A program made the position numbers and the translations under genes. Below, in pieces: positions 4,026-60,438 of a stretch of 64,000 bases of DNA. Numbering within the stretch: position 1 is the first letter of the stretch; each line of letters opens with the position of its first letter. A model generated the notes under the pieces. The model was not told the origin of the DNA and made no database searches. It saw nothing but the letters and a program-made list of their open reading frames with translations. Source of the DNA: Candidatus Babeliales bacterium (GTDB lineage: Bacteria > Babelota > Babeliae > Babelales > JANWKD01); the NCBI GenBank assembly GCA_963701665.1, contig OY969622.1:64001-128000 (forward strand), given 5' to 3'.

Positions 4026-4712
4026 TTATTCTTCATCTTCTTCAACAGCGACATAACGAATTTTTTTCCCGCCAGGTCCTCTGCGTGTTATTTGTTGTGG
4101 CGCAGATTTTTTTTGTTGCGCTGTTCTTTTTGCTTGCGCGCGTGTTGTGCGTGTTGGTTTTTTTGGTTCTTCCTTAGCAGGTGCTGGAGCTGCGACAGGT
4201 TTTTTTTCTTTCTTTTCTTCTTTTTCAATAACTTGTTTTTGTTTTCCTGCACCCTGTTTTTGCATTCCGCCATTTTTTAATTGCTCAACAAGATCAGTTA
4301 AGTTGCCTTTTGAGATACCGCCAATGCGAGAAAACAATTGTCCACCATTTTTATCGAAAAAAATAATTGTTGGGTATCCTTCGACCTTTAATTCACGCAT
4401 AACGTCAGGTGCATGATCGCCATCTGCAGCAAGGAAATTTATACTAGCACCATATTCTTTTGCTAATTGTTCATATGGTTCTTTGAGTTCTTTGCATGGG
4501 CCACACCATGATGTGTAACATTTTACAACCATTGGTTTTCCAGCATTTTTATATCTGTTGAATTCATTCATTGATTTAACGTCAATGACTTTATGTGCTG
4601 ATCTAGATGGTACAATGTCGATAGCACCCATGAGACATTCTTCTTTGGCATGTAGCATGCCGATGAAAGCGAATGTTACAATAACATTACCGAGTGCTTT
4701 AATGGTATTCAT
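4026..4712 (-). CDS. Exported thioredoxin-domain protein with basic low-complexity C-terminal tail
   Basis: WCGPC active site, EGYPT cis-Pro loop, N-terminal signal-like segment, K/R/Q/A/P-rich tail. Confidence 0.85.
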   Translation of the reverse strand: MNTIKALGNVIVTFAFIGMLHAKEECLMGAIDIVPSRSAHKVIDVKSMNEFNRYKNAGKPMVVKCYTSWCGPCKELKEPYEQLAKEYGASINFLAADGDHAPDVMRELKVEGYPTIIFFDKNGGQLFSRIGGISKGNLTDLVEQLKNGGMQKQGAGKQKQVIEKEEKKEKKPVAAPAPAKEEPKKPTRTTRAQAKRTAQQKKSAPQQITRRGPGGKKIRYVAVEEDEE

Positions 4713-4727
4713 AGCAAAATCCTTATA

Positions 4728-5141
4728 TTAATTGGTTGTAATACTTTTTATTTTTTTGCTGAAATCTTCAGAACGTGGTATGCCAGCTTTTTTCTCAATA
4801 ACGTTACCTGCTTTGTTGCAATACATTATTGTTGGATATCCAGTTATAGTATATTTATCTGCAACTTCTTTATTTGCATCACAATTTACGTTCATAAATC
4901 TAACATCTGGATATTCTTGCGATATCTTTTCAAATGTTGGTGCAAATTTTTTACATGCAGGACACCAAGGTTCATAAAATTTTACTATGGCGGGTTTACC
5001 TTCGTGTAACTTTGTTTCAAATTCTGCAGGCGAGCCTTTGAATTCTTCTACCGTGCATTGTATACTAATATGCATCACTAAAATCATGCACGATGTTAAT
5101 ACTATAGATTTCATCTGACAAATCTCCTTTTTTCTTTTCAT
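4728..5141 (-). CDS. Thioredoxin-family protein, probably exported
   Basis: WCPAC and GYPT motifs; hydrophobic N-terminus from the second Met (MKSIVLTSC...). Confidence 0.85.
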   Translation of the reverse strand: MKRKKEICQMKSIVLTSCMILVMHISIQCTVEEFKGSPAEFETKLHEGKPAIVKFYEPWCPACKKFAPTFEKISQEYPDVRFMNVNCDANKEVADKYTITGYPTIMYCNKAGNVIEKKAGIPRSEDFSKKIKSITTN

Positions 5142-36367: not shown

Positions 36368-36943
36368 TTATTTTGCAAATAATCCTTCAAATAGTATCTC
36401 ATTGAGAGGTTTGCGATCGTTGGGAAAATCAACATCCTGTAATTTTTTAGGAAGTTGTTCAACGTTACCATAGACACCAACGGCGACCATAGCTTCAACG
36501 GTGTATGTATCTGGAATCTTGAGCACTTGGGATGCTTTGTCGTAATTGAAGCCTTCCATACCATGCACAACAAGACCAAGTATTGAACCTTGTAATGCTA
36601 AGTTTTCCCACGCAGCTCCAGCATCAAACGAGTGAGTACGGGAAGGCCTGCCATCATAATCAAACACCTTATGGGAAACAATCACCATCAAAACAGCCGC
36701 GTTCTTTGCCCATGCTTGGTTTGCAGGTTCTAGCAAATCAAGAAATGTTTGCCAATAAGAAGAATTTCTTTTGGCATAGATAAAACGCCATGGTTGATTA
36801 TTGAAGGAGGATGGCGCCCACCGTGCCGCTTCAAAAAGCATCATTAATGTTTCGTTAGAAATTTCTTCACCCGTCATTGCACGGGATGACCAACGATTTA
36901 AAATGATGGGGCTAATTGGATAGTTCGATTTTCTTTGCTTCAT
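36368..36943 (-). CDS. Nitroreductase family protein
   Basis: RWSSRAM, AARWAPSSFNNQPWRF, FDAGAAWENLALQ, HGMEGF, RKPL; ATGA overlap with the VKOR stop. Confidence 0.93.
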   Translation of the reverse strand: MKQRKSNYPISPIILNRWSSRAMTGEEISNETLMMLFEAARWAPSSFNNQPWRFIYAKRNSSYWQTFLDLLEPANQAWAKNAAVLMVIVSHKVFDYDGRPSRTHSFDAGAAWENLALQGSILGLVVHGMEGFNYDKASQVLKIPDTYTVEAMVAVGVYGNVEQLPKKLQDVDFPNDRKPLNEILFEGLFAK

Positions 36944-37338
36944 ATGATCCCATTTATTTTCATACATGTAACAAGCAATAATACATTAATTACATACATA
37001 GAAGTACACAAAATGCATAATGCTTTAATTTTGAAGTACAAAAGATACGCAAAATAACATGACATGAGGCAACCAATAATTACGGTGATTAATAAGAATG
37101 TTTGTTGATGCAATGCAGCAAAGACAAAGACTAAAACATAAAAAGCAAATGCCAGCCACGCATTTGAAATATAAAAAATTGATGCGTATTTACTTTTCAT
37201 TGGTTTTGTACAGGAAATAGTATCAGAGAGATCGCACACCGGTTTATACGATGGCGTTTTTTTTATTTTCTGTTCCAAAACATTGGTATATAAAGAAATG
37301 ATCATACCAAGAAGAGCTAAAACCATAATTATTATCAT
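36940..37338 (-). CDS. Vitamin K epoxide reductase (VKOR) family protein
   Basis: CDLSDTISC loop, SKYA, CILC redox motif in a TM helix. Confidence 0.9.
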   Translation of the reverse strand: MIIIMVLALLGMIISLYTNVLEQKIKKTPSYKPVCDLSDTISCTKPMKSKYASIFYISNAWLAFAFYVLVFVFAALHQQTFLLITVIIGCLMSCYFAYLLYFKIKALCILCTSMYVINVLLLVTCMKINGII

Positions 37339-40894: not shown

Positions 40895-43396
40895 TTAGCT
40901 TTCAATGTTTTGGCCGATAGTTGTTGGCCCAGCAACGCCGAAACCGCCGAAATTAGGGAAATTAATTTGATCTGTACCATTATTTGTGGCAACACAGTTA
41001 ACCGGGAAAAGAAAAAAAGTGGGTGATGGAGCATTGAAACCAATATTATTAAGCGTTGCGTTACAATCCGTAAAACTATAATTTTGACCGCTTATTATAC
41101 CAAAACCAGTACCACCATTCTGGCTCGCACTACAACCAATAAAAGTCTGTGAATTACCTACAAGATCAAAGCCATCTGTAACATTATATAATGCCGAACT
41201 ATATTGACCAGTAAACTCACCATTTTGTATGCTAAAACCTACTTCATTATGAGATGCAATACAATTTTCACAGGCAGTTTTCGTACCTTGTACTAAAAAT
41301 CCAGTTCCATTTGAATTTGTTGCACTACAATTAGCTAATAAAGTATCAGTAACACCGGTAAATATCGCAAAGCTGCTGCTATCATTGATAACACTTCCAT
41401 TACATTGGTCTGCTACACAATTGTATAGGGATACATTATCAGCGTCCACTACGTATCCATACGCAAAATTACCAATCTCATCTGCTGTTTGCAAAATTTG
41501 AATTGCTTGACAATCAATGAAAATATTATCATTTGCAGTTGTTTCAAAGCCAACTGCATTGCCGGCATCGTCTCCCGTTGGTGATACAGATATATTAGAT
41601 GCCACACAATTTTTAAATAGATTATCGACCCCGCTAGAAATAAAACCTACTGCATTTGTTAATCTACTTGATAAGCCTAACGCTTGACAATTTTGAACTA
41701 CGGAGCCCATGCAGGCTAACTGAAATCCTGCAGTATTTGTCCCAGCACCATTTGATGCAGCTAAGCAAGAATCAAATAAACAGTTCTGACCTGCGTCTAC
41801 GCGGAAGCAAACAAAAGCATTGCCATCGCAATCTTGAACGTCACATGATATAAATCTAAAGGTTATTGCATCGGTTGCATAAATACCTGCAAGGGTCCCT
41901 CCTGTTATCATATTGCTAACGGATATATTAACAAGATCCATACCAAATTGTTGTCCACCTTCTGCATTTAAGTAGACACCATAAACACTAGCATCGGTAA
42001 TACTGACATTAGAAATTTCTGTATATAAACATCCTCCTGCTAATTCCATACCAAAGGAGCCTGTGTTTGCAATATATACATTTTTGATGGTTGAATCGAT
42101 TAAAAAGCTAAACAGCATACCTATGCCCGTTGTATTTGCTACCGTTACACCATCCATGAGCAAATAATTGTCCCCATCACTGAAGAAACCTTGCGCAACA
42201 GTATCAATATAAATATTGAAGAATCTATTACCATTACCTGTTGAACTTATTGCGGTCAAACCTGGCGATTCAGTGATACTTATATCTTCAATTGTTGAAT
42301 TCGTTGTGTTATTAAGAACAATCCCCACCGATGAATTTGTTATTGTGCCATTTTTTATGGTAGTCCCTACGATTCCTGATCCTACTGTAACACCACCAGT
42401 CGTAATCGTGTGAGCGTTCAGATCGAGAGTGACATCATTTGCAGTTATCACAAATGAACCGCTAACATCATTTGCAAGACAATAATAACCACTTTGTGTT
42501 ATGGTTACTGGAGCTGTGAGGGATGTTGCAAAACATGCGGTAATAGCATTGAGTTCGGTAAATACGAAAGACAAATCGATACTTGCAATCGCGCTAAACG
42601 TTCCATCAAACCCATCTGCTAAGATGGTCCATGTTTGTTGAAATTCTGATGTAATATTGTTACAGCATGCGTTAAGTGCGGTAAATGTCCCATCAAACCC
42701 GTCTGCTAAAATGGTCCATGTTTGTTGAAATTCGCTCGTGATATTTTGACAACACGCGTTGAGCGCGGTAAATGTCCCTTGAAAATTCTCCTCAATAACA
42801 ACTGTCAATGTATCAACGAGCTCAGTCAAAATAGATACTGTAGAAATAAACGTACTTACCGTTTCTATTAAGATTTCACTTGAAAATATTGAAATGGTTA
42901 ACAGAACATCATTAAGTATTGAAAACGTTGTTATAAAATTATTTTCAATCTGCTGGCAACACTGATTCAAATTCGTCAGTATTACATTCAATAAATTTCT
43001 GATAGATGAAAGGTCACAAGCTCCAGGCCCAACAATAAATGGCCGCTGTTCTTCTCGCGGCGCTTTCAACGTATCATCATTTGGCAATTCATTAACTAAT
43101 ACTTGATATCGCGCAAGTAATAAAGGATATGCTAGTATTAAATCTTGTAACGGTAATGAATTAGCATTATGTTCAAGTCTTTGGCAACATCTCATTAATG
43201 CTTCAACAGCAGATTCATGATGTATGTAATCATCAAGAGTCAAATTTTCACATAAACCTTTAATAAAAGTTTTAATCGTTTCATCGACGGTAATTTCATT
43301 CTGCAATTCACTACTCGTTGGATCTGGCATGTTAGCGGCAATCACTACGCTAAAACTAAACATGATCATCAAAAACAAACTCGATAAAGACTTCAT
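40895..43396 (-). CDS. Exported Cys-Cys-repeat protein A with C-terminal right-handed beta-helix
   Basis: Signal peptide, pro-domain, GPGACDLS, CC repeats, then ITQSGYYCLANDV / VTLDLNAHTI and parallel beta-helix repeats (C.A..N..GF); RBS aggag before ATG 43396. Confidence 0.8.
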   Translation of the reverse strand: MKSLSSLFLMIMFSFSVVIAANMPDPTSSELQNEITVDETIKTFIKGLCENLTLDDYIHHESAVEALMRCCQRLEHNANSLPLQDLILAYPLLLARYQVLVNELPNDDTLKAPREEQRPFIVGPGACDLSSIRNLLNVILTNLNQCCQQIENNFITTFSILNDVLLTISIFSSEILIETVSTFISTVSILTELVDTLTVVIEENFQGTFTALNACCQNITSEFQQTWTILADGFDGTFTALNACCNNITSEFQQTWTILADGFDGTFSAIASIDLSFVFTELNAITACFATSLTAPVTITQSGYYCLANDVSGSFVITANDVTLDLNAHTITTGGVTVGSGIVGTTIKNGTITNSSVGIVLNNTTNSTIEDISITESPGLTAISSTGNGNRFFNIYIDTVAQGFFSDGDNYLLMDGVTVANTTGIGMLFSFLIDSTIKNVYIANTGSFGMELAGGCLYTEISNVSITDASVYGVYLNAEGGQQFGMDLVNISVSNMITGGTLAGIYATDAITFRFISCDVQDCDGNAFVCFRVDAGQNCLFDSCLAASNGAGTNTAGFQLACMGSVVQNCQALGLSSRLTNAVGFISSGVDNLFKNCVASNISVSPTGDDAGNAVGFETTANDNIFIDCQAIQILQTADEIGNFAYGYVVDADNVSLYNCVADQCNGSVINDSSSFAIFTGVTDTLLANCSATNSNGTGFLVQGTKTACENCIASHNEVGFSIQNGEFTGQYSSALYNVTDGFDLVGNSQTFIGCSASQNGGTGFGIISGQNYSFTDCNATLNNIGFNAPSPTFFLFPVNCVATNNGTDQINFPNFGGFGVAGPTTIGQNIES
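42604..42777. repeat. Tandem 87-bp (29-aa) repeat inside protein A
   Basis: GTFTALNACC(Q/N)NITSEFQQTWTILADGFD occurs twice. Confidence 0.9.
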
Positions 43397-44120
43397 ATCA
43401 GGCTCCTTTTTAAAAACGACTCTTCTCAATTGTACCTACGTTACCGCACTCTAATCCGGGATTTCAATAAAATAAAAACGAAATATAGATAGCCCAAAAA
43501 GGTTATTCCATTACCAGTTAAAATCTTTTTCATAGATCATGCCATTTCAAAAATCCAAAAATAAACCCAGAATTACGCAAAAAAGATCCAATACGGTGGG
43601 TTGTTGAAGGAACATTTTCTTGGATGAATCAATTCAGATGTGTTTTTATTCGTATTGTTTCCAGAAAAGTTTAGTTTGCAGACAAGCTCTTAATTCTTGA
43701 TATCGCGCAAGTAATAAAGGATATGCTTGTATCAGATCTTGTAACGGTAATGAATTAGCATTATTTTCAATATGCTGGCAACATCTCTTTAATGCCTCAA
43801 CACCAGATTTATGATGTATGTAATCATCATGAGTTAAATTTTCACACAAGTCTTTAATAAAAGTTTTGATCGTTTCATCGACAGTAATTTCAGGTTCAGT
43901 AGTTGGATCTGGTAAGTTCCCGGCAATCACGGTGCTGAAACTAAACATTATCATCAAAAACAAACTCGATAAAGGCCTCATATCAGACTCCTTTTTAAAA
44001 AATAACCCCTTAATTGTGCCCACGTTGCCTTACTCTAATCTGGGATTTCAAGAAAGTAAAAACAAAAATATAGATAGCTCAAAAAGGTTATTCCGTTACC
44101 AATTAAAATCTTTTTCATAG
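43102..44120. repeat. Diverged duplication of ~430 bp (43102-43535 vs 43696-44120)
   Basis: Both copies contain the sulfotransferase C-terminus YEKDFNW*, the intergenic region and the 5' part of gene A. Confidence 0.9.
43646..43981 (-). pseudogene. Truncated paralog of protein A (signal peptide and pro-domain only)
   Basis: MRPLSSLFLMIMFSFS...YPLLLARYQ closely matches protein A, then diverges and stops. Confidence 0.85.
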
Positions 44121-44914
44121 CCAAGATCTATAAGCAATTGCCCAGCAACTTTTTTAAAAGCAGCTTTATGTCTTTCTAAGAAATGTTCTTTCCATGAGCC
44201 AATTTTGCCTTCACGAAACGTCGTCGTTCCGCCAAATAAGACTGACGAGATTTTTTTTGCTTCTTCTCTCGTAATAACATGGCCAAGGAAACTTGCTATT
44301 GCAATAATCTCATGTATCTGTGTTTCTTCATCGCCCCCACCTTCTTTACCTACTAATTTTTCAAATGTCGTCGCGTATACATTAGGTTCAAATCGCCATG
44401 GTAAATAGAGGTTATAAAATGATGCTACATCTTTTACATGAATCCATGGATTTTGTGCAAGAAATATTGTTGACCATAGCATACTTCCATCTGTTATCAA
44501 TGCATCAATAAGCTCATCTAAACTCCATTCATGCTGAGGAGCCCTCTCTATAGTTTTTATCCAAAAAGCTGCCGAAACAATTTGATCGCGTGGATCTCTA
44601 TAAATAAAAACTTTTTTAATACGTACATCGTTCAATTTTTTTATATTTTTTTCAACATAAATCGCATGAGCTATAAGAATAAAAAGCGGACTCGTCATAA
44701 GTATTTTAACCGCTTGATCATCGATCAAAAAGAATCTCTTACGCGGAATAGCCAACTGTGCATAGCAAATTTCTGTCAGCATCTTTAATAATAAATTAGT
44801 GCCACATTTGGGGATAGTGATTGCTGTTACACGATACATATCCTCAGAGCATTGTCCACCTAGTAATCCAACGTAAAGTATAACGATTCCCAGTATATTT
44901 TTTCTCATATTCAT
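44096..44914 (-). CDS. PAPS-dependent sulfotransferase 1 (signal peptide)
   Basis: 5'-PSB loop IPKCGT, 3'-PB RDPRDQIVS, FREGKIGSWK. Confidence 0.9.
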   Translation of the reverse strand: MNMRKNILGIVILYVGLLGGQCSEDMYRVTAITIPKCGTNLLLKMLTEICYAQLAIPRKRFFLIDDQAVKILMTSPLFILIAHAIYVEKNIKKLNDVRIKKVFIYRDPRDQIVSAAFWIKTIERAPQHEWSLDELIDALITDGSMLWSTIFLAQNPWIHVKDVASFYNLYLPWRFEPNVYATTFEKLVGKEGGGDEETQIHEIIAIASFLGHVITREEAKKISSVLFGGTTTFREGKIGSWKEHFLERHKAAFKKVAGQLLIDLGYEKDFNW

Positions 44915-45007
44915 TATCTCCTTCTGATTAAACTGAGGACCGACAGCTCAAATCAAAGGCTATACTGATGGGAAAAAAATACAACCATAGTTAAAAGATT
45001 AATAAAA

Positions 45008-45242
45008 TAACGCGAATTCGATAAAAAAAATTATCAACTTATCACAAAAATATCTCGAAATGTCATCACGAGGAACGTAGTGACGTGGTGACCCAGAACT
45101 TTAATAAATTCCTTTTAATGAATTAATTTTATTATCTGGGTTGCCAACTCCGCTAAAAGCTGCATAGATTCGCAATGACAATTCTGTTTTTATATTATTT
45201 TCTTAGGCTAAATTTATGTTTTTATACATCGAATTCGCGTTA
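45008..45242. mobile_element. MITE-like element with perfect 15-bp terminal inverted repeats enclosing palindromic element copy 4
   Basis: taacgcgaattcgat (45008-45022) / atcgaattcgcgtta (45228-45242). Confidence 0.65.
45062..45179. repeat. Palindromic element copy 4
   Basis: gtcatcacgagg...cccagaactttaataaattccttt...taattttattatctgggttgcc...tcgcaatgac. Confidence 0.85.
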
Positions 45243-45261
45243 AAATAATAAGGTATTACAG

Positions 45262-45386
45262 GGAAACGAAGGGTGCGCAAACCAAAAAATTGTGAGTACT
45301 AAAGAAATGCTCGAGACTACGTTCCCTGATAAAAATGGGTATTATGGGATGAACGATTAAGCATTAAACGTGCTGATGTTCTTAAA
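45262..45386 (+). pseudogene. Frameshifted remnant of the ruvX 3' half
   Basis: Aligns to 40622-40747; encodes ...TKEMLETTFPDK / WVLWDERLSIKRADVLK with frameshifts. Confidence 0.8.
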
Positions 45387-45417
45387 TATGATTAATGCTA
45401 ATGACACTTATTAATGA

Positions 45418-45444
45418 AGGTTCTCCTAATACCTAGGAGAACCT
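45418..45444 (-). terminator. Hairpin downstream of CC-repeat protein B
   Basis: aggttctccta / taggagaacct. Confidence 0.55.
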
Positions 45445-45466
45445 CATCATTTTGTGCCTATGAATG

Positions 45467-46384
45467 CTAACAGGTGCCAACATATGAATCAAGTATACAT
45501 GCACTATTACCTGCAAGATTGTTCAACCTCGTACCATCTGAAACAATAGAGCCATTTGTAGCCATAAGACCAGTAATCAAAGTACTAACTTCAAAGCAAC
45601 AAATAGAAAATGTTACTCTAAGGGTGTTAAAACAACCGGAAATGTCAGTTAATAACGTATTAAGCTCATTTAAATCAGTAGTCAAATCGAAAAATATAGT
45701 ATCAAAATTATTAGTAAGAATGCTGTAGGTGGAGTTAAACCCAAAAGCAATTACCGAATACGTACCTTGAAAATCATTGGCTACTTCTTCACAACAGGTA
45801 GTAAGATCATTTTGATTATGAGCTAAAACAGTAAAAGTCCCAGCAAAATCGTTCGTAATAGTTTCACAACAGACATTCAATATATTTTCTATAGCAGCTA
45901 ATACGGTAAGCGTTCCACTAAAATCAATAGAATTATTTGCACAACATTGCGTAAGCAACGGATATATTTCTTGACTAAGATAATTATATACACCAGCAAG
46001 ATCACATTGCAAAGGGCCGAAAAGCACACCGGGACTATAACGGGATTCTTCTGGAATCATTTCTAATATATGCATTATGTCAGAGAATGCTTCTTGAAGA
46101 GTATTTTCATCACATTCAGTTTTATTTTGCGTCAACTGTTCATAGCATCTCAATAAGCTCTCAGGGAGGCATTCTTCCTTTCGCTGTGCTATCTTATTTT
46201 CAACTATCGTAATTATAAGAGATTTAAGGTAAGAATCATCGGCAAGAACAGTTTTTTTTGTGGCATTGTTATTCTGTTGCACTAGTATTGATGCGCTATC
46301 ATCAGAGGTACTTTCAGCATGATACAAGATACCAATAATAATTAAAAATAATAAAAACAATCTAAAATTATTTTTATTTTTCAT
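45467..46384 (-). CDS. Exported Cys-Cys-repeat protein B
   Basis: Signal peptide, LLRCYEQL pro-domain, GPLQCDL, CC pairs at 25-aa spacing; RBS aggag. Confidence 0.85.
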   Translation of the reverse strand: MKNKNNFRLFLLFLIIIGILYHAESTSDDSASILVQQNNNATKKTVLADDSYLKSLIITIVENKIAQRKEECLPESLLRCYEQLTQNKTECDENTLQEAFSDIMHILEMIPEESRYSPGVLFGPLQCDLAGVYNYLSQEIYPLLTQCCANNSIDFSGTLTVLAAIENILNVCCETITNDFAGTFTVLAHNQNDLTTCCEEVANDFQGTYSVIAFGFNSTYSILTNNFDTIFFDLTTDLNELNTLLTDISGCFNTLRVTFSICCFEVSTLITGLMATNGSIVSDGTRLNNLAGNSACILDSYVGTC

Positions 46385-46494
46385 GGAATTACTCCTTTTT
46401 TAAGATGCACTACCATTTTGTATACTAAAAAGAAGAATAAATAGAATGCAAGACATAGTAGAAGATAGAAAAAAATCCTTTTGCGATAAATAGA

Positions 46495-46516
46495 AAGGGG
46501 CACTTGTGTGCCCCTT
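46495..46516 (-). terminator. Hairpin downstream of CC-repeat protein C
   Basis: aaggggcac / gtgcccctt. Confidence 0.55.
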
Positions 46517-46541
46517 AAAACATTCTACTTACCGTGTTAAT

Positions 46542-47447
46542 TTAACAAGTATTAAACTCGAAAGCGGTGTTTAAGGTACAGTTAGTAAGATCTTCATAGC
46601 TAGAAATAATGTTATTAATAGTCTCATATGTAGTAATAAAATTATTATTAGCCTCGTTTAATAAATTTATCAGATCGTCGCAGCAATTAGCTATTTGGAA
46701 TTCTAAACTGGTGCAACAGGCGTCAAAAGTACCATTCATCTCTCCTACAACAGTATCTAACTCATTTACTAAAGGTATAATAACCCCAAATCCTGCATCT
46801 AATACACTATAAGTACTGTTAAATGCATATGCTAATGCCGAAAATGTGCCGCTGAATTCTGTAAATATCTCTGCACAACATTGGGTAAGAGTAGAATCTA
46901 ATTCGTAGAGCGCGCTAAATGTACCATTGAAGTCATTAGCAATAGTTGCGCAACACTGCGTAAGCGTATTCTCAAATTCACTCAATACGGTAAAGGTGCC
47001 ATTGAAATCAGTAGTCTCGTTATTACAACAAACAACAAGTGCGTCATAGAACTTTCTTAATAATTGATAAATTCCGGACAAATTACATGTTGGTGGTCCT
47101 GCTAAAACATTGGGCACATGTTCGCGAGGGGATTTGTCTGTCATAGATTGTAATTTAATTATTAGTTCGGGTAGAACATTTTTTAATGTTTCTGGCGCAC
47201 AAGTATTGTTTTCATAAAGCTCTTGGTAGCATGCCAATAACTCAGGAGAAATATTTCTCTCAGAATCCTCTAAAGCGTGCTCAACAAAAAAGGTTACCAA
47301 TGTTTTTACTATTTCATGCTCAACTATTATAGTATAACACGGGTCCAAACTGCTTTTCGTATCTGCACCTTGTAAACTTACTACACAATTTTGCGTTAAT
47401 AATAGTATAAGAAAAAGTTTTAAAAAATTTCTCACACGCATAAACAT
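46542..47447 (-). CDS. Exported Cys-Cys-repeat protein C
   Basis: Signal peptide, LLACYQEL, GPPTCNL, five CC pairs, repeated DFNGTF; RBS gagggg. Confidence 0.85.
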   Translation of the reverse strand: MFMRVRNFLKLFLILLLTQNCVVSLQGADTKSSLDPCYTIIVEHEIVKTLVTFFVEHALEDSERNISPELLACYQELYENNTCAPETLKNVLPELIIKLQSMTDKSPREHVPNVLAGPPTCNLSGIYQLLRKFYDALVVCCNNETTDFNGTFTVLSEFENTLTQCCATIANDFNGTFSALYELDSTLTQCCAEIFTEFSGTFSALAYAFNSTYSVLDAGFGVIIPLVNELDTVVGEMNGTFDACCTSLEFQIANCCDDLINLLNEANNNFITTYETINNIISSYEDLTNCTLNTAFEFNTC

Positions 47448-47524
47448 GATACCCCTCTTTTTAGAAAATTGTCTCTTTCATAGTCTCAATCCCTTATGCT
47501 CAAAAATTATGTATGCCACATCTA

Positions 47525-48562
47525 TTAGCCACATGTATGGGCTGTTGGACAGAAAGGATCCGGTACAAGGTGTGTACTTGCTACGCAAAAGTTGTTACAT
47601 TCATGACCTAAGAATGATGCAACAATACTCACAGCGTTTGCTACCTGACTACCCAGCGCAAGCAAAGATTCAAACAATGATGCACAACAATTATCGATTT
47701 GAGTTTCAAAGTTAGTGCAATTTGATGTTAGTGTGGTTAGAACATCATTCAACACTATTGTTATAGCATCGAGCAGTGTAACTGTCCCATTAAAATCTGC
47801 CGTAATTATTGTTTCAGTGCTATTAAATCCATAGTTTAAAGCACTATATGTGCCGCTAAGATCATAGAATTCTACCGCGCAACAATTTGTTAATGTAGTC
47901 TCAAATTCCGCTAAGGCAGAAAATGTACCGTTAAAATCATTAGTAATATTCTCACAGCATATTGTTAAAGTATTTTGAATATAGGCTAAGTCAGAAAAAA
48001 TCATGCCAAAATCTATCGTGTTATTATTACAGCATTGCGTCAGTAAGCTTTCTATGGTCATAAGCAGGTCAATAACTATGGAAGTATTACATAACAATGG
48101 CCCAACGATGGGATGTATTTTTGGATGCAATACCTTTGTATTCGTATCTGCCAAAACATCCAGACTTACTTTTATCACATTACGTAGATCTTCTATTAAA
48201 AAATCGTTTTTATTATTTGATATCTGCTCATAGCATTGCAAGAATCCGTGGGGAAGAGCATTTGTCAAACCTTGCTCTAGAGCATTTTCAACAATAGATG
48301 TTATATAGGATTTGAAAATAGGGTCTTCAACTTTTACATAGATTACATCAGAATTAATTGTTTCCAAAAATTGTATATTTAGTTCATCACCGAGCTTAGA
48401 ATATTCGGCCATGAAATTATCTTTATATGCTTCATCAAATTCCTTAGAGGCTTCTACGAGGAATTCACGACCATCATTTTGCATCATGCCTTGTATTGGC
48501 CACGGATAATGTTGCAGTATTAAAATTGTAAAAAAGAGATTTATACACTTTCCATATTCCAT
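47525..48562 (-). CDS. Exported Cys-Cys-repeat protein D
   Basis: Signal-like N-terminus, FLQCYEQI, GPLLCNT, four CC pairs; RBS aggag. Confidence 0.85.
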   Translation of the reverse strand: MEYGKCINLFFTILILQHYPWPIQGMMQNDGREFLVEASKEFDEAYKDNFMAEYSKLGDELNIQFLETINSDVIYVKVEDPIFKSYITSIVENALEQGLTNALPHGFLQCYEQISNNKNDFLIEDLRNVIKVSLDVLADTNTKVLHPKIHPIVGPLLCNTSIVIDLLMTIESLLTQCCNNNTIDFGMIFSDLAYIQNTLTICCENITNDFNGTFSALAEFETTLTNCCAVEFYDLSGTYSALNYGFNSTETIITADFNGTVTLLDAITIVLNDVLTTLTSNCTNFETQIDNCCASLFESLLALGSQVANAVSIVASFLGHECNNFCVASTHLVPDPFCPTAHTCG

Positions 48563-48620
48563 CTAATTTTACTCCTTTTTTCCCTATTTTTACTTGCATC
48601 ATAAAAACAATTTTATCAAT

Positions 48621-49565
48621 CTAGGGTGTACCCCCACAAATTACGCAAGATATGTCGAAGTTTCCACAAACTATGCAACTCGTTGCCGCTGCAAGTTCTT
48701 GGGCATAATCTGTATTCTCCATCATAGTAATTGATTCACTTAAGATAGCACTTGCACTCGATATTAATTCATTACAACAATTAGTAAGCTGGCTTTCAAG
48801 GCTACCACAGCAAGCAATTATTTGGTCAAGAACGGTATTTGCTAGACTTATGTCTGTATCTAACAAAACTTCTACCGTATTAAAATCTGAAGCTAAACGA
48901 GGGAACAATGTATTGATTCCATTGGCAATAACCGTAAATGTACCGATAAAAGCATTATTAAAATCTATACAACATGTAGAAAGCGTATTTTGTATAGCGT
49001 TTATCACGGTAAAAGTACCCTCAAAGTCTGCTGTTGCATTTGCACAACATTGCGTCAAGGTGCCTTGCAAATCATTGAGCTCCGCAAAAATTGCATCAAA
49101 CGAGATGGTAGCCGCATTACAACACTGCGTAAGAAGTCTATAGAGATGGTTAAGCAGACCAATAATCTCAGAAAGATCACATCCTGCAGGCCCTGCAAGA
49201 GGACGTTGCGTTTGGGGGCGAGATGCTTTTACCATTCGATTTAATCCAGCCGTTAAATCAGGAAAAACATCAATAAGATCTTTTACTAAAAACTCTTTCT
49301 CATCTTTACAGACTTGTTCATAGCAGTTTAGCAAACCATTTGAAAGTTGCTCCTGCGCATTATCTTGTAATGCATTTTCAACTAAACTAATCACATAGGA
49401 TTTAAAATGAGGATTATCAACAACGATGCTCTCCTGCACAATGTCACCATGTTGCAGCGCAGCTATTGCAAGATTATCGAATATTATTTCACTTTTCACA
49501 CAGAAAGAAATATGTGGTATTATAAAAAATATAGATAAAAACCATGATTTATTCTTTAATCTCAT
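48621..49565 (-). CDS. Exported Cys-Cys-repeat protein E
   Basis: Signal peptide, LLNCYEQV, GPAGCDL, five CC pairs, C-terminal CIVC...CVIC; RBS ggggag. Confidence 0.85.
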   Translation of the reverse strand: MRLKNKSWFLSIFFIIPHISFCVKSEIIFDNLAIAALQHGDIVQESIVVDNPHFKSYVISLVENALQDNAQEQLSNGLLNCYEQVCKDEKEFLVKDLIDVFPDLTAGLNRMVKASRPQTQRPLAGPAGCDLSEIIGLLNHLYRLLTQCCNAATISFDAIFAELNDLQGTLTQCCANATADFEGTFTVINAIQNTLSTCCIDFNNAFIGTFTVIANGINTLFPRLASDFNTVEVLLDTDISLANTVLDQIIACCGSLESQLTNCCNELISSASAILSESITMMENTDYAQELAAATSCIVCGNFDISCVICGGTP

Positions 49566-49672
49566 AAAATTCTCCCCTTTAAAATATACTGTTGTTTTAA
49601 TACTAAAAAGAAGAGTAAATATAATGCAAGAATTTTTAAGATTACTTCATGACAACGACCAAAAATTTGCCT

Positions 49673-50491
49673 TTACCAACCGAAGTCTTTTTCATAACCA
49701 AGATCTATAAGCAGTTGCCCTGCAACTTCTTTAAAAGCAATTTTATGTCTTTCTAAGAAATGTTCTTTCCATGAACCAATCTTCCCTTCACGAAATGTCG
49801 ATGTACCCCCAAATAATTCGTCGGCAATTTTTTTTGCTTGTTCCCAAGTAAGAGGTTTACCTAAGTGATTTCCTATTGCGATAATTTCTTTTATTTGTTC
49901 ATCCTCACTACCACCTCCTTGTTTTCCGATTAATTTTTCAAACGTTGTGGTATATACATCTGGCTCAAATCGCCATGGTAAATATATATTATAAAATGAA
50001 GCTATATCCGTTATTTGAAGCCAGGGATCGTCAGACAAAAATACTTTGGACCATAAGAACCCGGTGTTCATTATCAATGAATCAATAAGAACATCTAAAT
50101 CCCATGTTTTTTCCTCTATCCTTTCTATAGTCTTTAGCCAAAAAGCTGCAGAGACCACTTGATCACGAGGATCTCGAAATATAAAAACTTTTTTTATTCG
50201 CTCATTACTCATTTTTTTAATATTATCATTAACATAAATTGCATGTCCTACGAGCAACCACCTTGGATCCATCATCAGCATTTTTATGGCATTGGCATCA
50301 ATTAAAAAAAATCTTCTACGAGGAATAGCTACCTTCGCATGAGACATCATTAAAAGCATTTTCGCTAATAGCATGGTACCACATTTAGGGATAGTTATTT
50401 CTGCGACACGATATAAATCAGGATATTGCTGAGCGCATAATCCAACATTAATTATGAATAATGCTATTTTTACTACGTTTTTTATACTCAT
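49673..50491 (-). CDS. PAPS-dependent sulfotransferase 2 (signal peptide)
   Basis: IPKCGT, RDPRDQVVS, FREGKIGSWK; close paralog of sulfotransferases 1 and 3. Confidence 0.9.
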   Translation of the reverse strand: MSIKNVVKIALFIINVGLCAQQYPDLYRVAEITIPKCGTMLLAKMLLMMSHAKVAIPRRRFFLIDANAIKMLMMDPRWLLVGHAIYVNDNIKKMSNERIKKVFIFRDPRDQVVSAAFWLKTIERIEEKTWDLDVLIDSLIMNTGFLWSKVFLSDDPWLQITDIASFYNIYLPWRFEPDVYTTTFEKLIGKQGGGSEDEQIKEIIAIGNHLGKPLTWEQAKKIADELFGGTSTFREGKIGSWKEHFLERHKIAFKEVAGQLLIDLGYEKDFGW

Positions 50492-50611
50492 GCCTTCTTA
50501 CCCTTCATTGTAGCTACATATTCTTTTTTAATTTTAGTTTTATGAAAAAAAACGTAGATGAAGCAAGAAAAAAGCTCTAATTTCATGAAGGTCGATGATA
50601 AAGCTTATTCA

Positions 50612-51424
50612 TTACCAGTTAAAATCCTTTTCGTAACCGAGATCTATAAGTAGTTGCCCTGCAACCGCTTTAAAAGCAATTTTATGTCTTTCTAAGAAAT
50701 GTTCTTTCCATGATCCAATCTTTCCTTCACGAAATGTCAATGTACCCCCAAATAATTTGTCGGCGATTTTTTTTGCTTCTTCCCAGGTAAGGGATTTACC
50801 TAGGTGATTTGCTATTGCAATAATTTCTTTTATTTGTTCATCCTCGCTACCGCCTCCTTGTTTTCCGACTAACTTTTCAAATGTTGTGGTATATACATCC
50901 GGTTCAAATCGCCATGGTAAATATATGGTATAAAATGAAGTTATATCAGTTATTTGAAGCCATGGATCATCTGAGCAAAGTACTTCAGACCATAAGGGCC
51001 CAGTATTCATGATCAGTAGATCAATAAGCACATCTAAATCCCATGTGCTTTCTGGCATCCTATCTATAGTTTTTATCCAAAAAGCTGCAGAGACCACTTG
51101 ATCACGCGGATCTCGAATTATAAAAACTTTTTTTATTTGTTCGTTACTTATTTTTTTAATATTATCATCAACATAGATTGCATGTGCTATGAGCAACCAC
51201 ACTTTACTTTCCATAAACATTTGCATGGCATCATCATCAATTAAAAAAAAACTTCTACGAGGAATAGGTAATTTTGCATGAGTCATCATTAAAAGCATTT
51301 TCAGTAGCATGTTGGAACCACATTTAGGAATAGATATTCCTACAACACGATATAAATCACCGTTCGCACATAATCCAAAATGAATTATGAATAATGCTAT
51401 TTTTACTATGTTTTTTATACTCAT
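50612..51424 (-). CDS. PAPS-dependent sulfotransferase 3 (signal peptide)
   Basis: IPKCGS, RDPRDQVVS, FREGKIGSWK; tandem paralog of 49673-50491. Confidence 0.9.
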   Translation of the reverse strand: MSIKNIVKIALFIIHFGLCANGDLYRVVGISIPKCGSNMLLKMLLMMTHAKLPIPRRSFFLIDDDAMQMFMESKVWLLIAHAIYVDDNIKKISNEQIKKVFIIRDPRDQVVSAAFWIKTIDRMPESTWDLDVLIDLLIMNTGPLWSEVLCSDDPWLQITDITSFYTIYLPWRFEPDVYTTTFEKLVGKQGGGSEDEQIKEIIAIANHLGKSLTWEEAKKIADKLFGGTLTFREGKIGSWKEHFLERHKIAFKAVAGQLLIDLGYEKDFNW

Positions 51425-51645: not shown

Positions 51646-52203
51646 ATGAAGAAAAAATGGTCTAATTGTTTTAAACAAATTTTTTCGATGGTATTGCTAT
51701 TTGGTCTTATTTCAACTATAGGCGCTCAGCCATCAACTACGACGGTGAATTGGCACTGGTTAAGTGACGAATCGTGCGATAATACAAATAGTGGTATAAC
51801 ATCTGGTGTTGTCGATGCTAATATTGATATTATTGGTCATAATTCACTTTTTGGTATTGTTAGTGTTAAGGCATTAACATCCGATATTTTAGTTACGGTA
51901 ACTAATGGTGATGCTACTATTACTGGATCAGCGAACCGATGTGATGGCGGGCCAACTTATCCAGCGCGAGTATTTTTTTATGCTGCAGAAGATTGTAACA
52001 TAACATTTCAATTAGCAAATAGCCTTGATTTTTACGGTACGAGCAGCGGGAGTAGGCTTCTTGATTTTTTAGTCACCGTTTCTGGCCCTGGAACTTTTAA
52101 TTTCTTGATGGAAAACGGTAGTAATCTTAATTTTAATCCCCGAACAGAAGAAAGTGGTGGTGTATCATTCTTCTTGGCGTATGGTAGTTTTTCGGGAATA
52201 TGA
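51646..52203 (+). CDS. Hypothetical exported beta-rich protein, possibly an N-terminal fragment of a larger gene
   Basis: Signal peptide ending IGA-Q; G/S/T/N-rich beta-strand pattern; ends abruptly at tga-tag. Confidence 0.6.
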   Translation: MKKKWSNCFKQIFSMVLLFGLISTIGAQPSTTTVNWHWLSDESCDNTNSGITSGVVDANIDIIGHNSLFGIVSVKALTSDILVTVTNGDATITGSANRCDGGPTYPARVFFYAAEDCNITFQLANSLDFYGTSSGSRLLDFLVTVSGPGTFNFLMENGSNLNFNPRTEESGGVSFFLAYGSFSGI

Positions 52204-58357: not shown

Positions 58358-59332
58358 CTAAGATATACATTCATTCTGCTTAGATATACTATGGCTTTGG
58401 TAATTTTGTATAGACATTTTATACCACTCAAGCGTTCTTTGCATACCTTCTTCCAGAGAGATTTTCGCCTTCCATCCAAGCGCGTGAATTTTATCAACAT
58501 TCAGCAATTTGCGCGGTGTACCATCAGGTTTTGTGGTATCAAACACAAGTTCACCCCGAAATCCAACGATGTCTTTAATAAGATTAGCAAGATCTGCGAT
58601 GGAACAATCGTACCCAACGCCAACGTTAATTGGTTCTGATGCATTGTACTGCTGCATTAAAAAAAGAGAAGCATCGGCAAGATCATCAACGTATAAAAAT
58701 TCACGAAACGCGCGACCAGTGCCCCAAATTGGCACAGAACGCGCGTTTGTACTATAGGCATTATAAATTTTTGCAATCAGCGCGGGTACCACATGCGAGG
58801 TTTCAAGATTAAAATTATCTCCCGGGCCATATAAATTGGTTGGCATGCATGAAATAAAGTTAGTGCCGTGTTGTCTGTTATATGATTGGCAAAGATTAAT
58901 GCCAGCAATTTTTGCAATCGCATACGGTTCATTTGTTTTTTCAAGTGTGCCCGTTAATAAATATTCTTCACTAATAGGCTGAGGGCACAGGCGCGGGTAA
59001 ATGCAGGAAGAGCCCAAGAATAATAATTTTTTTACGCCGTGTTGATAGGCCGCGTGAATAACATTCGCTGCTATCATGATGTTGTCGTAAATAAAATCTG
59101 CAGGAAAATCATTATTTGCTTTTATACCGCCAACGCGCGCAGCAGCAAGGAAAACGTACGCCGGTTTTTCTTGCGCAAAAAACTCGTTAGTCGCGCGTTG
59201 ATCGCACAAGTCGAGCGTTTGCACTGTTCTGTATATCAAATTTTTGTAGCCTTGCGCGTGCAATGCTCGCATCAATGCTGAACCTACCAATCCGGTGTGG
59301 CCGGCGACATAAATTTTTTCATGTTTATTCAT
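58358..59332 (-). CDS. fcl: GDP-L-fucose synthase
   Basis: [46 protein letters not shown]. Confidence 0.97.
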
Positions 59333-60438
59333 AAACTATCCACGGAATATGGTGATGTGCCACGAGGCTGTTGAAACAAATTTTCTTGGTTTTCTTGAGG
59401 CGGCTTAACAAGCTTACAATCATGATCAACCATAAGCGTCACTAATCCATCAAAATCCATTTTGGGATACCAGCCCAATGTACGTTGTGCTTTGCGTGAA
59501 TCACCAATGAGAAGATCAACTTCTGTTGGTCTGAAATAATGTTCATCAATACGCACTAATGATTTTTTTGTTTTTGTATCGATACCGCACTCGTCTATGC
59601 CAGTTCCTTGCCATATAAGATTGATATCAACATGAGCAAATGCTTTTTCTATGAACTCGCGCACGGAATGTGTTTTGCCGGTGGCAATAACAAAATCTTC
59701 AGGAACATTTTGTTGCAGCATGAGCCACATCGCTTCGACATAATCTTTTGCATATCCCCAATCACGTTTTGCATTGAGATTGCCAACATATAAACATTCC
59801 TGAAGTCCATATTTTATGCGCGCAACAGCTCGAGTAACTTTTCGTGTCAAAAATGTTTCACCACGCAAGGGCGATTCATGATTAAAAAGAATTCCGTTGC
59901 AGGCATACATAGAATACGCTTCACGATAATTTACGGTAATCCAATAGGCGTACAATTTAGCAGCTGCATACGGTGATCGAGGGCAAAAGGGTGTTGTTTC
60001 TGATTGAGGGACTTCAAAACTGTTACCATATAATTCACTCGTTGATGCTTGATAAAACCTCGTTTTTGAAGTCAAACCGAGCAGCCGTATCGCTTCTAAG
60101 ATGCGTAAGGTACCTAATCCATCAGCATTGGCGGTATACTCAGGCGTTTCAAAAGAAACATGCACATGACTTTGTGCCGCTAAATTATACACTTCATCCG
60201 GTTGAATTTCCTGAATAAGTCTGATTATATTTGTCGAATCAGTAACATCACCATAATGTAAAATAAAATTTGCTGTGTCATACTCATGCGCATCTTGATA
60301 AATATGATCAATACGCGATGTGTTAAATGAAGAGGAGCGGCGTTTTAGCCCATGAACTTGATAACCTTTTTGCAGCAAAAATTCCGATAAATAGGCGCCA
60401 TCTTGGCCTGTAACACCCGTTATTAAAGCTTTCTTCAT
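59329..60438 (-). CDS. gmd: GDP-mannose 4,6-dehydratase
   Basis: [43 protein letters not shown]. Confidence 0.98.

Follow-up and report, generated by a model that had tools for sequence, protein, structure and literature searches.

Several described systems bear on the locus considered here. MAT (mosaic adhesive trimer) fibers of Bdellovibrio are paralogous, trimeric, signal-peptide-bearing proteins that combine a common N-terminal domain with variable C-terminal tips; the N-terminal domain (~130 residues) is beta-rich, the fibers use intertwined trimeric beta-prisms and many carry S74 (PMC10769870). Bacillus ENA fibers are resistant surface fibers whose subunits, DUF3992 jellyrolls with a single N-terminal Cys-Cys, are cross-linked through that conserved motif (10.1101/2020.08.21.260141). 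In the trimeric coiled coil of respiratory syncytial virus (RSV) F protein, adjacent Cys pairs engineered at heptad positions g and a were designed as interchain disulfide rings and yielded covalently linked oligomers; cartilage matrix protein has one natural, terminal CEC ring (PMC4476739). Clusters of Megavirinae contain a sulfotransferase and Sat/CysC among fibril-glycan genes, viral sulfation being predicted only (PMC10117803), and a sulfotransferase likewise lies in the glycan cluster of cyanobacterial synechan (XssA/XssE), a Wzx/Wzy polysaccharide (PMC8205485). The subject of this report is a nine-gene locus at 40895..51424 of a 64,000-nucleotide stretch (the window) of contig OY969622.1 from a Candidatus Babeliales bacterium, which encodes Cys-Cys coiled-coil proteins with signal-peptide-like N-termini together with three sulfotransferases (STs). 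Babelota are bacteria that live inside protists. In the accounts consulted their envelopes and means of attachment are only loosely described, one of them reporting no lipopolysaccharide genes and "surface antigens of unknown function" (PMC6561590).

The reading favored here, to which we assign a probability of about 55%, is that proteins B to E of this locus are coat rods locked by rings of cysteines and that ST1-3 sulfate surface sugars with 3'-phosphoadenosine 5'-phosphosulfate (PAPS) taken from the host. Because this reading and the alternatives below are not fully exclusive, the likelihoods given to them need not add up to one. The genome under study (G000) is a single contig of 1,337,192 bp, and all nine open reading frames (ORFs) lie on the minus strand in the transcription order ST3, ST2, E, D, C, B, ST1, A', A, each at the place given to it by an earlier sequence-only reading that had taken the nine as one system:

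50612..51424, minus strand: ST3, SULT-like sulfotransferase (PF00685) with a signal-peptide-like N-terminus
49673..50491, minus strand: ST2, sulfotransferase, a recent ST3 duplicate
48621..49565, minus strand: E, tipless short Cys-Cys (CC) coiled-coil protein, 314 residues, CC at 148/173/198/252/263
47525..48562, minus strand: D, tipless short CC coiled-coil protein, 345 residues, CC at 177/202/227/292
46542..47447, minus strand: C, tipless short CC coiled-coil protein, 301 residues, CC at 140/165/190/244/255
45467..46384, minus strand: B, tipless short CC coiled-coil protein, 305 residues, CC at 147/172/197/262
44096..44914, minus strand: ST1, SULT-like sulfotransferase, 60% identical to the G001 ST that follows four short genes (G001 being the only other genome of the genus)
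43646..43981, minus strand: A', cut-down duplicate of A that retains no more than the signal peptide and the larger part of the pro-domain
40895..43396, minus strand: A, with pro-domain, KAPR, short CC stalk and C-terminal right-handed beta-helix

Identity to C is 33-36% for each of the other three short proteins, and the four share an invariant framework: a CY in the pro-domain, the GPxxC motif, three CC pairs followed by a fourth, and a pair of terminal cysteines. Their CC spacings are 25, 25 and 65 residues in B and D and 25, 25, 54 and 11 in C and E, so that the distance from first to last CC is 115 residues in all four alike. GPxxC(D/N) is present in A-E, which form one family, but the further resemblance that the sequence-only reading had drawn between A and the others does not extend to the stalk: the repeat of A is of the LNACCxNITSEFQQTWT type found in the long fibers of the genome, with spacings of 69 and 29, and in trees A groups with those fibers apart from B-E. 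When the 1009 genome ORFs of at least 150 residues were filtered for three or more CC or either motif, 12 passed and 11 of these belonged to the rod family, so the pattern is not a product of chance; the remaining ORF is secretin-like and has GPxxC(D/N) only. No Pfam family matches B-E over its cut-off, and the beta-helix family PF13229 is found in A. B-E and A are members of a Babelota family of which no earlier description was found.

The layout common to this family consists of a signal peptide, a three-helix pro-domain, [KR]APRP, a CC stalk with a 3.6-residue period and a variable tip. Signal peptides were called by eye and with a hydrophobicity heuristic rather than with SignalP; by that heuristic 430 of 976 ORFs in the genome begin with a comparable hydrophobic stretch, close to the 44% reported for Chromulinavorax (PMC6561590). 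A search with a profile spanning the pro-domain and the first turn of the stalk gathered 173 clusters at 50% identity (E<=0.001), the tail of which contains unrelated saposin proteins. Family matches occur in 17 of 261 Babelota genomes, mostly in families f1, f11 and f17, and this is a lower bound, a different profile adding G025 and G041. The pro-domain leads into a [KR]APRP-like motif in 36 of the 58 unique proteins, some members have the motif without the pro-domain, and cleavage would presumably fall at [KR]APR-P. Relatives reach ~3000 residues with repeat stalks and beta-helix tips; PF13229 is present in 43 of the 62 longer hits scanned (two of the 43 also have WD40), and the tips comprise beta-helix, WD40 and others without assignment. 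Elsewhere in G000 the family is represented by four genes of ~1550 residues with 16-17 CC pairs, two of ~850 residues and one lone pro-domain.

Among the 58 unique proteins, 319 of 352 CC spacings of up to 50 residues, and 444 of 482 when the limit is set at 80, can be written as sums of 7 and 11 (22 of 46 and 50 of 76 integers, respectively, would qualify), counts in which repeats within a protein are not independent. The best CC period is 3.60, which places the pairs on one face of a predicted, nearly straight helix. Structure prediction with three copies of C residues 107-301 returned a score of 0.66 against 0.06 for the best control; 20 of 30 solved pairs and 1 of 23 single chains attain the mark used, counts that are only roughly valid for three copies. 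Agreement between runs was at least 81% of contacts, the predicted local distance difference test (pLDDT) score was at least 81, contacts ran from residue i to residue i as in a parallel in-register bundle, and all five CC pairs appeared in the interface list, which supports a model of C as a parallel bundle with inward Cys pairs. In an ideal-helix sketch, too crude to fix stoichiometry, C-beta atoms of different chains lay 4.6-5.0 A apart in a trimer, 4.2-4.6 A in a tetramer and 5.8-5.9 A in a dimer. At 1.5 A per residue, ~175 residues would make a rod of about 26 nm. The sequence-only reading had pointed to first CC pairs 25 residues apart in B-E, to final pairs 11 apart in C and E and to a coiled-coil periodicity, and had asked whether the pairs meet across chains: the first three hold, and in the trimer model the pairs lie at the predicted interface. 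Genes that could serve oxidation of these cysteines are present, namely a stand-alone VKOR gene (window 36940-37338) that is syntenic in G001, two thioredoxins with N-terminal extensions (window 4026-4712 and 4728-5141) and a DsbD gene ~0.9 kb after the giant-fiber cluster of G000; their products may act on the CC pairs.

Known folds and families offer no better identity for these proteins. The pro-domain is modeled as three helices (pLDDT 81.5); Foldseek gave no match at E<=0.001, an absence that does not show a new fold, and the best fold match, to the glycolipid-transfer fold (Z 6.3, rmsd [root-mean-square deviation] 3.4, 98 residues aligned), lies within helical noise. By profile, a saposin-like assignment was rejected at an hhalign probability of 7.8%, the single conserved cysteine contrasting with the six-Cys pattern. 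The ESM Atlas gave no usable match for C or for P0002, which shows neither absence nor novelty, and the tip of A had no PDB sequence match at E<=1. For the baculovirus PEP C-terminus (PF04513, cut-off 38 bits), C (21.8), D (19.1) and E (15 bits) fall below the threshold; two long relatives, P0016 (65.4) and P0110 (44.4 bits), pass it in what we read as a match of repeat periodicity. Class I viral fusion proteins have a C-terminal transmembrane anchor, and B-E, with weak HR1 coil matches only, have no transmembrane-level segment after the signal; trimeric autotransporter adhesins end in a YadA-like membrane anchor, and no such Pfam match was found in A-E or the 62 longer hits. N-glycosylation at FNGT sequons was set aside as well, neither STT3 nor GT41 being found in the five genomes tested with each, and Asn being absent from 405 of 819 F-x-x-T-(F/W/Y) motifs.

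The same evidence bears on whether B-E are structural at all. Their Cys pairs might instead bind metal or stay reduced, B-E then being secreted helical effectors or membrane-active proteins and not a coat. The host cytosol is reducing, and weak profile matches link B-E to viral HR1 trimers (best E 3e-5) and to saposin-repeat proteins. We consider this very improbable, given the poor saposin probability, the lack of a transmembrane-level hydrophobic segment beyond the signal, and relatives of ~3000 residues with repeat stalks and beta-helix tips.

ST1-3 score 31.7, 25.7 and 25.3 bits against PF00685 (cut-off 22) and align to SULT2A across the sulfotransferase motifs. P35/K36/G38, H83, R106-D-P-R109 and G236 are invariant in 13 sequences, and S114, R234 and W241 are conserved in at least 90%; we take these to represent the 5'-phosphosulfate-binding (5'-PSB) loop, the catalytic His, the 3'-phosphate-binding (3'-PB) motif and the C-terminal RxGxxGxW. 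A tyrosine sulfotransferase of the RaxST/TPST type was rejected, since at E up to 0.1 ST1-3 report PF00685 only and no match of the PF13469 type, presumably that of protein-tyrosine sulfotransferases. Triplication of the ST in G000 is well supported (Shimodaira-Hasegawa-like approximate likelihood ratio test, SH-aLRT, 99), and a quick tree separates the rod-linked STs, as a clade of their own, from the paralogues in glycan clusters of G000, G001 and G003 (SH-aLRT 91). Ahead of the PSB loop there is a hydrophobic segment in all 19 of the Babelota-titled STs, in 13 of 14 titled Chlamydiae and in 33 of 36 that are untitled or apparently mislabeled, against 1 of 36 from other named taxa (a heuristic survey, not SignalP, with 8 ORFs skipped).

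Relatives of these enzymes adjoin GT2, GT6, GT11, FkbM and epimerase genes, many with signal-like N-termini, and the fourth ST of G000 (ST4) adjoins GDP-mannose dehydratase (gmd), STELLO, GT2 and GT4 genes. At least one glycan enzyme is present at 26 of 54 ST loci of at least 15 kb, compared with 8 of 64 G000 tiles, a figure biased upward by queries that came from such clusters. The clade thus looks like one of glycan-modifying enzymes, and ST1-3 are likely to be exported, PAPS-dependent glycan sulfotransferases. As separate observations, the cluster that includes ST4 (L005:5061-12767 and L062, G000:C1 ~1119-1149 kb) also has signal-bearing GDP-mannose dehydratase, STELLO-like, RXYLT1-like, GT2 and GT4 genes; another gmd, which has no signal, is found at window 59329-60438 together with epimerase/reductase, ManC and GT2 genes, and the GDP-fucose genes of the window have no signal-like segments, so the signal is not universal. 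The G004 sulfotransferase (L066:10963-12708) is interrupted by an inserted transposase-looking ORF.

No match to PF01583, PF01747 or PF01507 was found in G000, that is, no APS (adenosine 5'-phosphosulfate) kinase, ATP sulfurylase or CysD, and tblastn with the Sat-CysC of a relative gave no hit at E<=1. Of the 261 genomes, 14 have an APS kinase; the ST clade is present in 13 of these, in 10 of them within ~4 kb of the kinase. In turn, 31 of 44 ST-bearing genomes, some of them incomplete, have no APS kinase match. Matches of 19.7-21.3 bits in G001, G003 and G004 were discarded, covering the P-loop end only and disappearing at 1e-10. Failure to find a PAPS synthase in G000 points to host PAPS; four TLC nucleotide carriers are encoded in the genome. 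On the simplest reading, the STs would modify glycans outside the cytoplasm with PAPS drawn from the host. Where Sat-CysC fusions do occur in Babelota, all six examined have a signal-peptide-like N-terminus (L170:8334-10007, L171:13266-14942, L172:5321-7084, L173:7673-9352, L174:10898-12598 and L175:6009-7685), and a seventh PAPS-synthase locus (G037) holds just a 236-residue ORF without a signal-like segment. The six belong to gene clusters that also encode signal-bearing glycosyltransferases and methyltransferases and as many as eight sulfotransferases, apparently an exported glycan and sulfation factory.

A different role for ST1-3 is suggested by structure databases, in which the closest solved enzymes are cytosolic small-molecule SULTs such as hydroxysteroid SULT2A (E 7.5e-6; profile E 3e-13). 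Host-directed effectors that sulfate sterols, phenolics or other small molecules of the protist in the manner of these SULTs, unrelated to the rods, would also account for export signals confined to intracellular lineages and for a genome in which no PAPS source of its own was found. The placement of the clade among glycan enzymes, allowing for the bias noted above, and of the paralogue ST4 beside gmd, STELLO and GT2 makes this a distinctly improbable account.

Whether rods and sulfotransferases form one system can be judged from G001, which has four short genes and, 106 bp after them, a single ST, the whole flanked by unrelated genes. The RuvX site of G001 has two A-type genes and no ST or B-E genes; A in G000 is also RuvX-adjacent. 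Since module and A-type genes occupy separate sites in G001, the nine-gene block resolves into a module of five genes placed next to an A locus, its ST having been tripled in G000. The module was kept together though it stands at different sites in the two genomes. A is beta-helix-tipped (PF13229), as had been proposed, but a nine-gene system with A as its tip is not supported. B is probably orthologous to the last of the four short genes of G001, the one next to the ST. All four G001 rods measure 89-90 residues from first to last CC, against 115 in G000, and this equality within each genome would point to co-assembly, provided that the short genes of the two genomes pair up as orthologues. 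Tree support is moderate, and only for the pairs B-Z (87/90) and D-W (83/82), the latter lost on re-trimming; a G001-only clade of short genes is not rejected (approximately unbiased test, p-AU 0.19), and tests of concerted change in stalk length gave p-AU 0.19 and 0.18 with an alignment row for C that included the signal region.

A closer relationship than the favored one would be that ST1-3 sulfate the rod subunits directly, on Tyr, Ser/Thr or an attached glycan, with B-E and A forming one hetero-oligomeric fiber. STs flank B-E in G000 and one follows the short genes in G001, the rod-linked STs have their own clade, stalks are equal in length within each genome, and mature B-E hold 34-40 Ser+Thr. 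Set against this are the unlinked A-type genes of G001, the different repeat and length of the A stalk and its grouping with long fibers, the absence from ST1-3 of a PF13469-type match, and trees that do not reject a G001-only clade in place of one-to-one orthologues, and on balance we think direct tailoring unlikely.

Outside the genus the picture changes. Among 261 genomes, 44 have the ST clade and 17 the rod family; the two coincide in 4, a chance-level count (2.9 expected, related genomes not being independent), and 13 of the 17 family-bearing genomes have no ST match while 40 of the 44 ST-bearing genomes have no family match. A rod gene lies within 10 kb at 1 of 78 ST loci (from the best 80 of 328 matches), namely that of G001, and none of 14 further rod-family loci has an ST. 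No stretch of the rod alignments was conserved enough for locus scans, and a scan with P0002 returned three loci, two of them long fibers without an ST and one unrelated. The conserved linkage that the sequence-only reading had put up for checking thus fails beyond the genus, and its idea of dedicated tailoring enzymes survives in part: the ST-B-E link recurs in G001 and involves a clade of its own, but it is not family-wide. The dedicated system holds at genus level only. At that level the link suggests that the sugars presumed to be sulfated may belong to the same coat as the rods. The counts also suit a chance neighborhood, in which a disulfide-stapled fiber family and a mobile, duplication-prone glycan ST met once in the ancestor of the genus with no functional link, the more so in a region whose rearrangement is marked by dispersed repeats, the shortened A' and the partial gene at 51646-52203. 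Such an accident does not readily explain why the five-gene module stayed intact at different sites while B-E diverged to ~30-35% identity, nor why the linked ST is a separate paralogue, and it too seems to us unlikely.

The preferred reading, coat rods together with sulfation of surface sugars, can be set out as a series of steps. B-E would be exported by Sec, and their three-helix pro-domain possibly removed at [KR]APR-P, the motifs being present and the processing presumed. Their helices, whose period is observed, would then bundle in register as the predicted trimer, and the Cys-Cys rings could be oxidized by VKOR, thioredoxin and DsbD. The products would be parallel, three-stranded rods of ~26 nm, likely with interchain disulfide rings and likely part of a surface coat. 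B-E would represent the short tipless members, and the long members with beta-helix or other tips, A included, likely adhesive fibers. One ST paralogue would have left a glycan cluster, joined four short genes, as seen in two genomes, and tripled in G000; the glycan that it modifies may be attached to the rods or may be a separate component of the coat, expressed along with them. A stronger version, in which four paralogous, matched-length rods co-assemble as cysteine zippers into a giant-virus-like coat outside the cytoplasm and dedicated exported STs, within a larger exported glycan factory, sulfate the sugars of the rods with host PAPS, is speculative and, in our estimation, somewhat unlikely.

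Several points weigh against the preferred reading. The structural model covers three copies of a single paralogue, and the single-chain AlphaFold model of C is poor (pLDDT 46). DsbA-type PF13462 had no match in five genomes, and no oligosaccharyltransferase (PF02516) or GT41 that might glycosylate the rods was found in the five genomes tested with each; the sequon excess is modest (679 against 536 in shuffled sequence). The nearest solved STs are the cytosolic SULTs already mentioned, G000 has a marker completeness of 93.56%, and tandem ST expansion is common without rods, as in the eight copies of L172. Two genomes of one genus amount to one event, and the co-occurrence and single linked locus given above lie on the same side. 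Finally, hairpins after B and after C and the 553-bp gap between B and ST1 mean that the genes may not share a single transcript. Promoter and terminator counts showed no excess over shuffled sequence, and two soil runs gave short scattered pieces only.

Smaller features of the locus are as follows:

46495..46516, minus strand: terminator-like hairpin 3' of C, from a scan with a total terminator count at chance level
45005..45243, no strand assigned: dispersed repeat between B and ST1, with 83 genomic BLAST hits when its own is counted
43536..43653, no strand assigned: 120-bp element at the A' break, with two further genome sites at 87.5% identity
43511..43535, minus strand: sulfotransferase 3'-end remnant, part of a duplication of ST end, spacer and A start

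A' derives from an 85%-identical copy of the ST 3' end, spacer and A 5' end, broken beside the 120-bp dispersed element. The most likely starts are ATG 43396 for A and ATG 43981 for A', both behind AAGGAG, giving 833 and 111 residues. The repeat at 45005-45243 has inverted-repeat character, and its best copy (90%) lies just upstream of the giant-fiber cluster. The 185-residue ORF at window 51646-52203 matches only the N-terminus of a 1448-residue protein (G000:C1:934233-938579), near the gene of which lies a lone 134-residue pro-domain gene (931909-932313).

Further members illustrate the range of the family. The giant-fiber cluster (L001/L002, G000:C1:824470-843346) encodes four giant members with a 72-residue repeat and beta-helix-like tips. 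Two medium members with beta-helix-like tips (L003:7655-12770) are convergent with an ORF of at least 1710 residues that ends at the locus edge and has a C-terminal C1q domain (L003:12868-18000). Tandem stalk-less, tip-only genes, judged beta-helix-like from their N-termini, stand beside long fiber genes at L058:11593-17134, L076:5525-9655 and L072:10416-15227. The helical pro-domain also occurs on proteins without a Cys-Cys stalk (L015:649-1686, L016:1-1944 and P0124) and may be a general export or processing module of Babelota.

Domain, structure and literature searches found no characterized family for the rods, in agreement with the earlier view that no such system had been described; the literature search, which left most subscription papers and supplements outside its reach, returned no description of the rod family, of exported Babelota sulfotransferases or of a bacterium tailoring its own disulfide-locked surface with host PAPS. 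What is new here is a short, matched-length subfamily, a trimer model, a genus-limited ST link and a genome in which no PAPS source was found. The rod family provides testable candidates for coat and adhesins across an intracellular phylum, and a natural multi-ring cysteine zipper would be of use in protein design. Exported PAPS-dependent enzymes without a detectable PAPS synthase predict theft of a host metabolite and the site at which surface glycans are made; if the stronger version of the preferred reading is true, this bacterium uses host PAPS to tailor its own disulfide-locked surface.

Measured against the systems described at the outset, ST1-3 keep the PSB loop, PB motif, His and C-terminal RxGxxGxW of cytosolic SULTs (PF00685), but add an export-like N-terminal signal and are distant in sequence from the solved SULTs. 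The Babelota STs differ from those of the Megavirinae and synechan clusters in their signal-peptide-like N-termini and, in G000, in the lack of any PAPS synthase found. Like MAT fibers, the rod family is a set of paralogues with signal peptides, a common N-terminal domain and variable tips, with C modeled as a trimer, a resemblance and not a homology: the N-terminal domain of the rods is three-helical, the stalk is built on Cys-Cys pairs at 7/11 spacing, there is no S74 match and B-E are tipless. In contrast to ENA subunits they have no DUF3992 match, are predicted to be all-helical and carry 4-40 CC pairs. Compared with the RSV F zipper and the cartilage matrix protein ring, the CC pairs of this bacterial family are natural and are repeated along a stalk with a 3.6-residue period.

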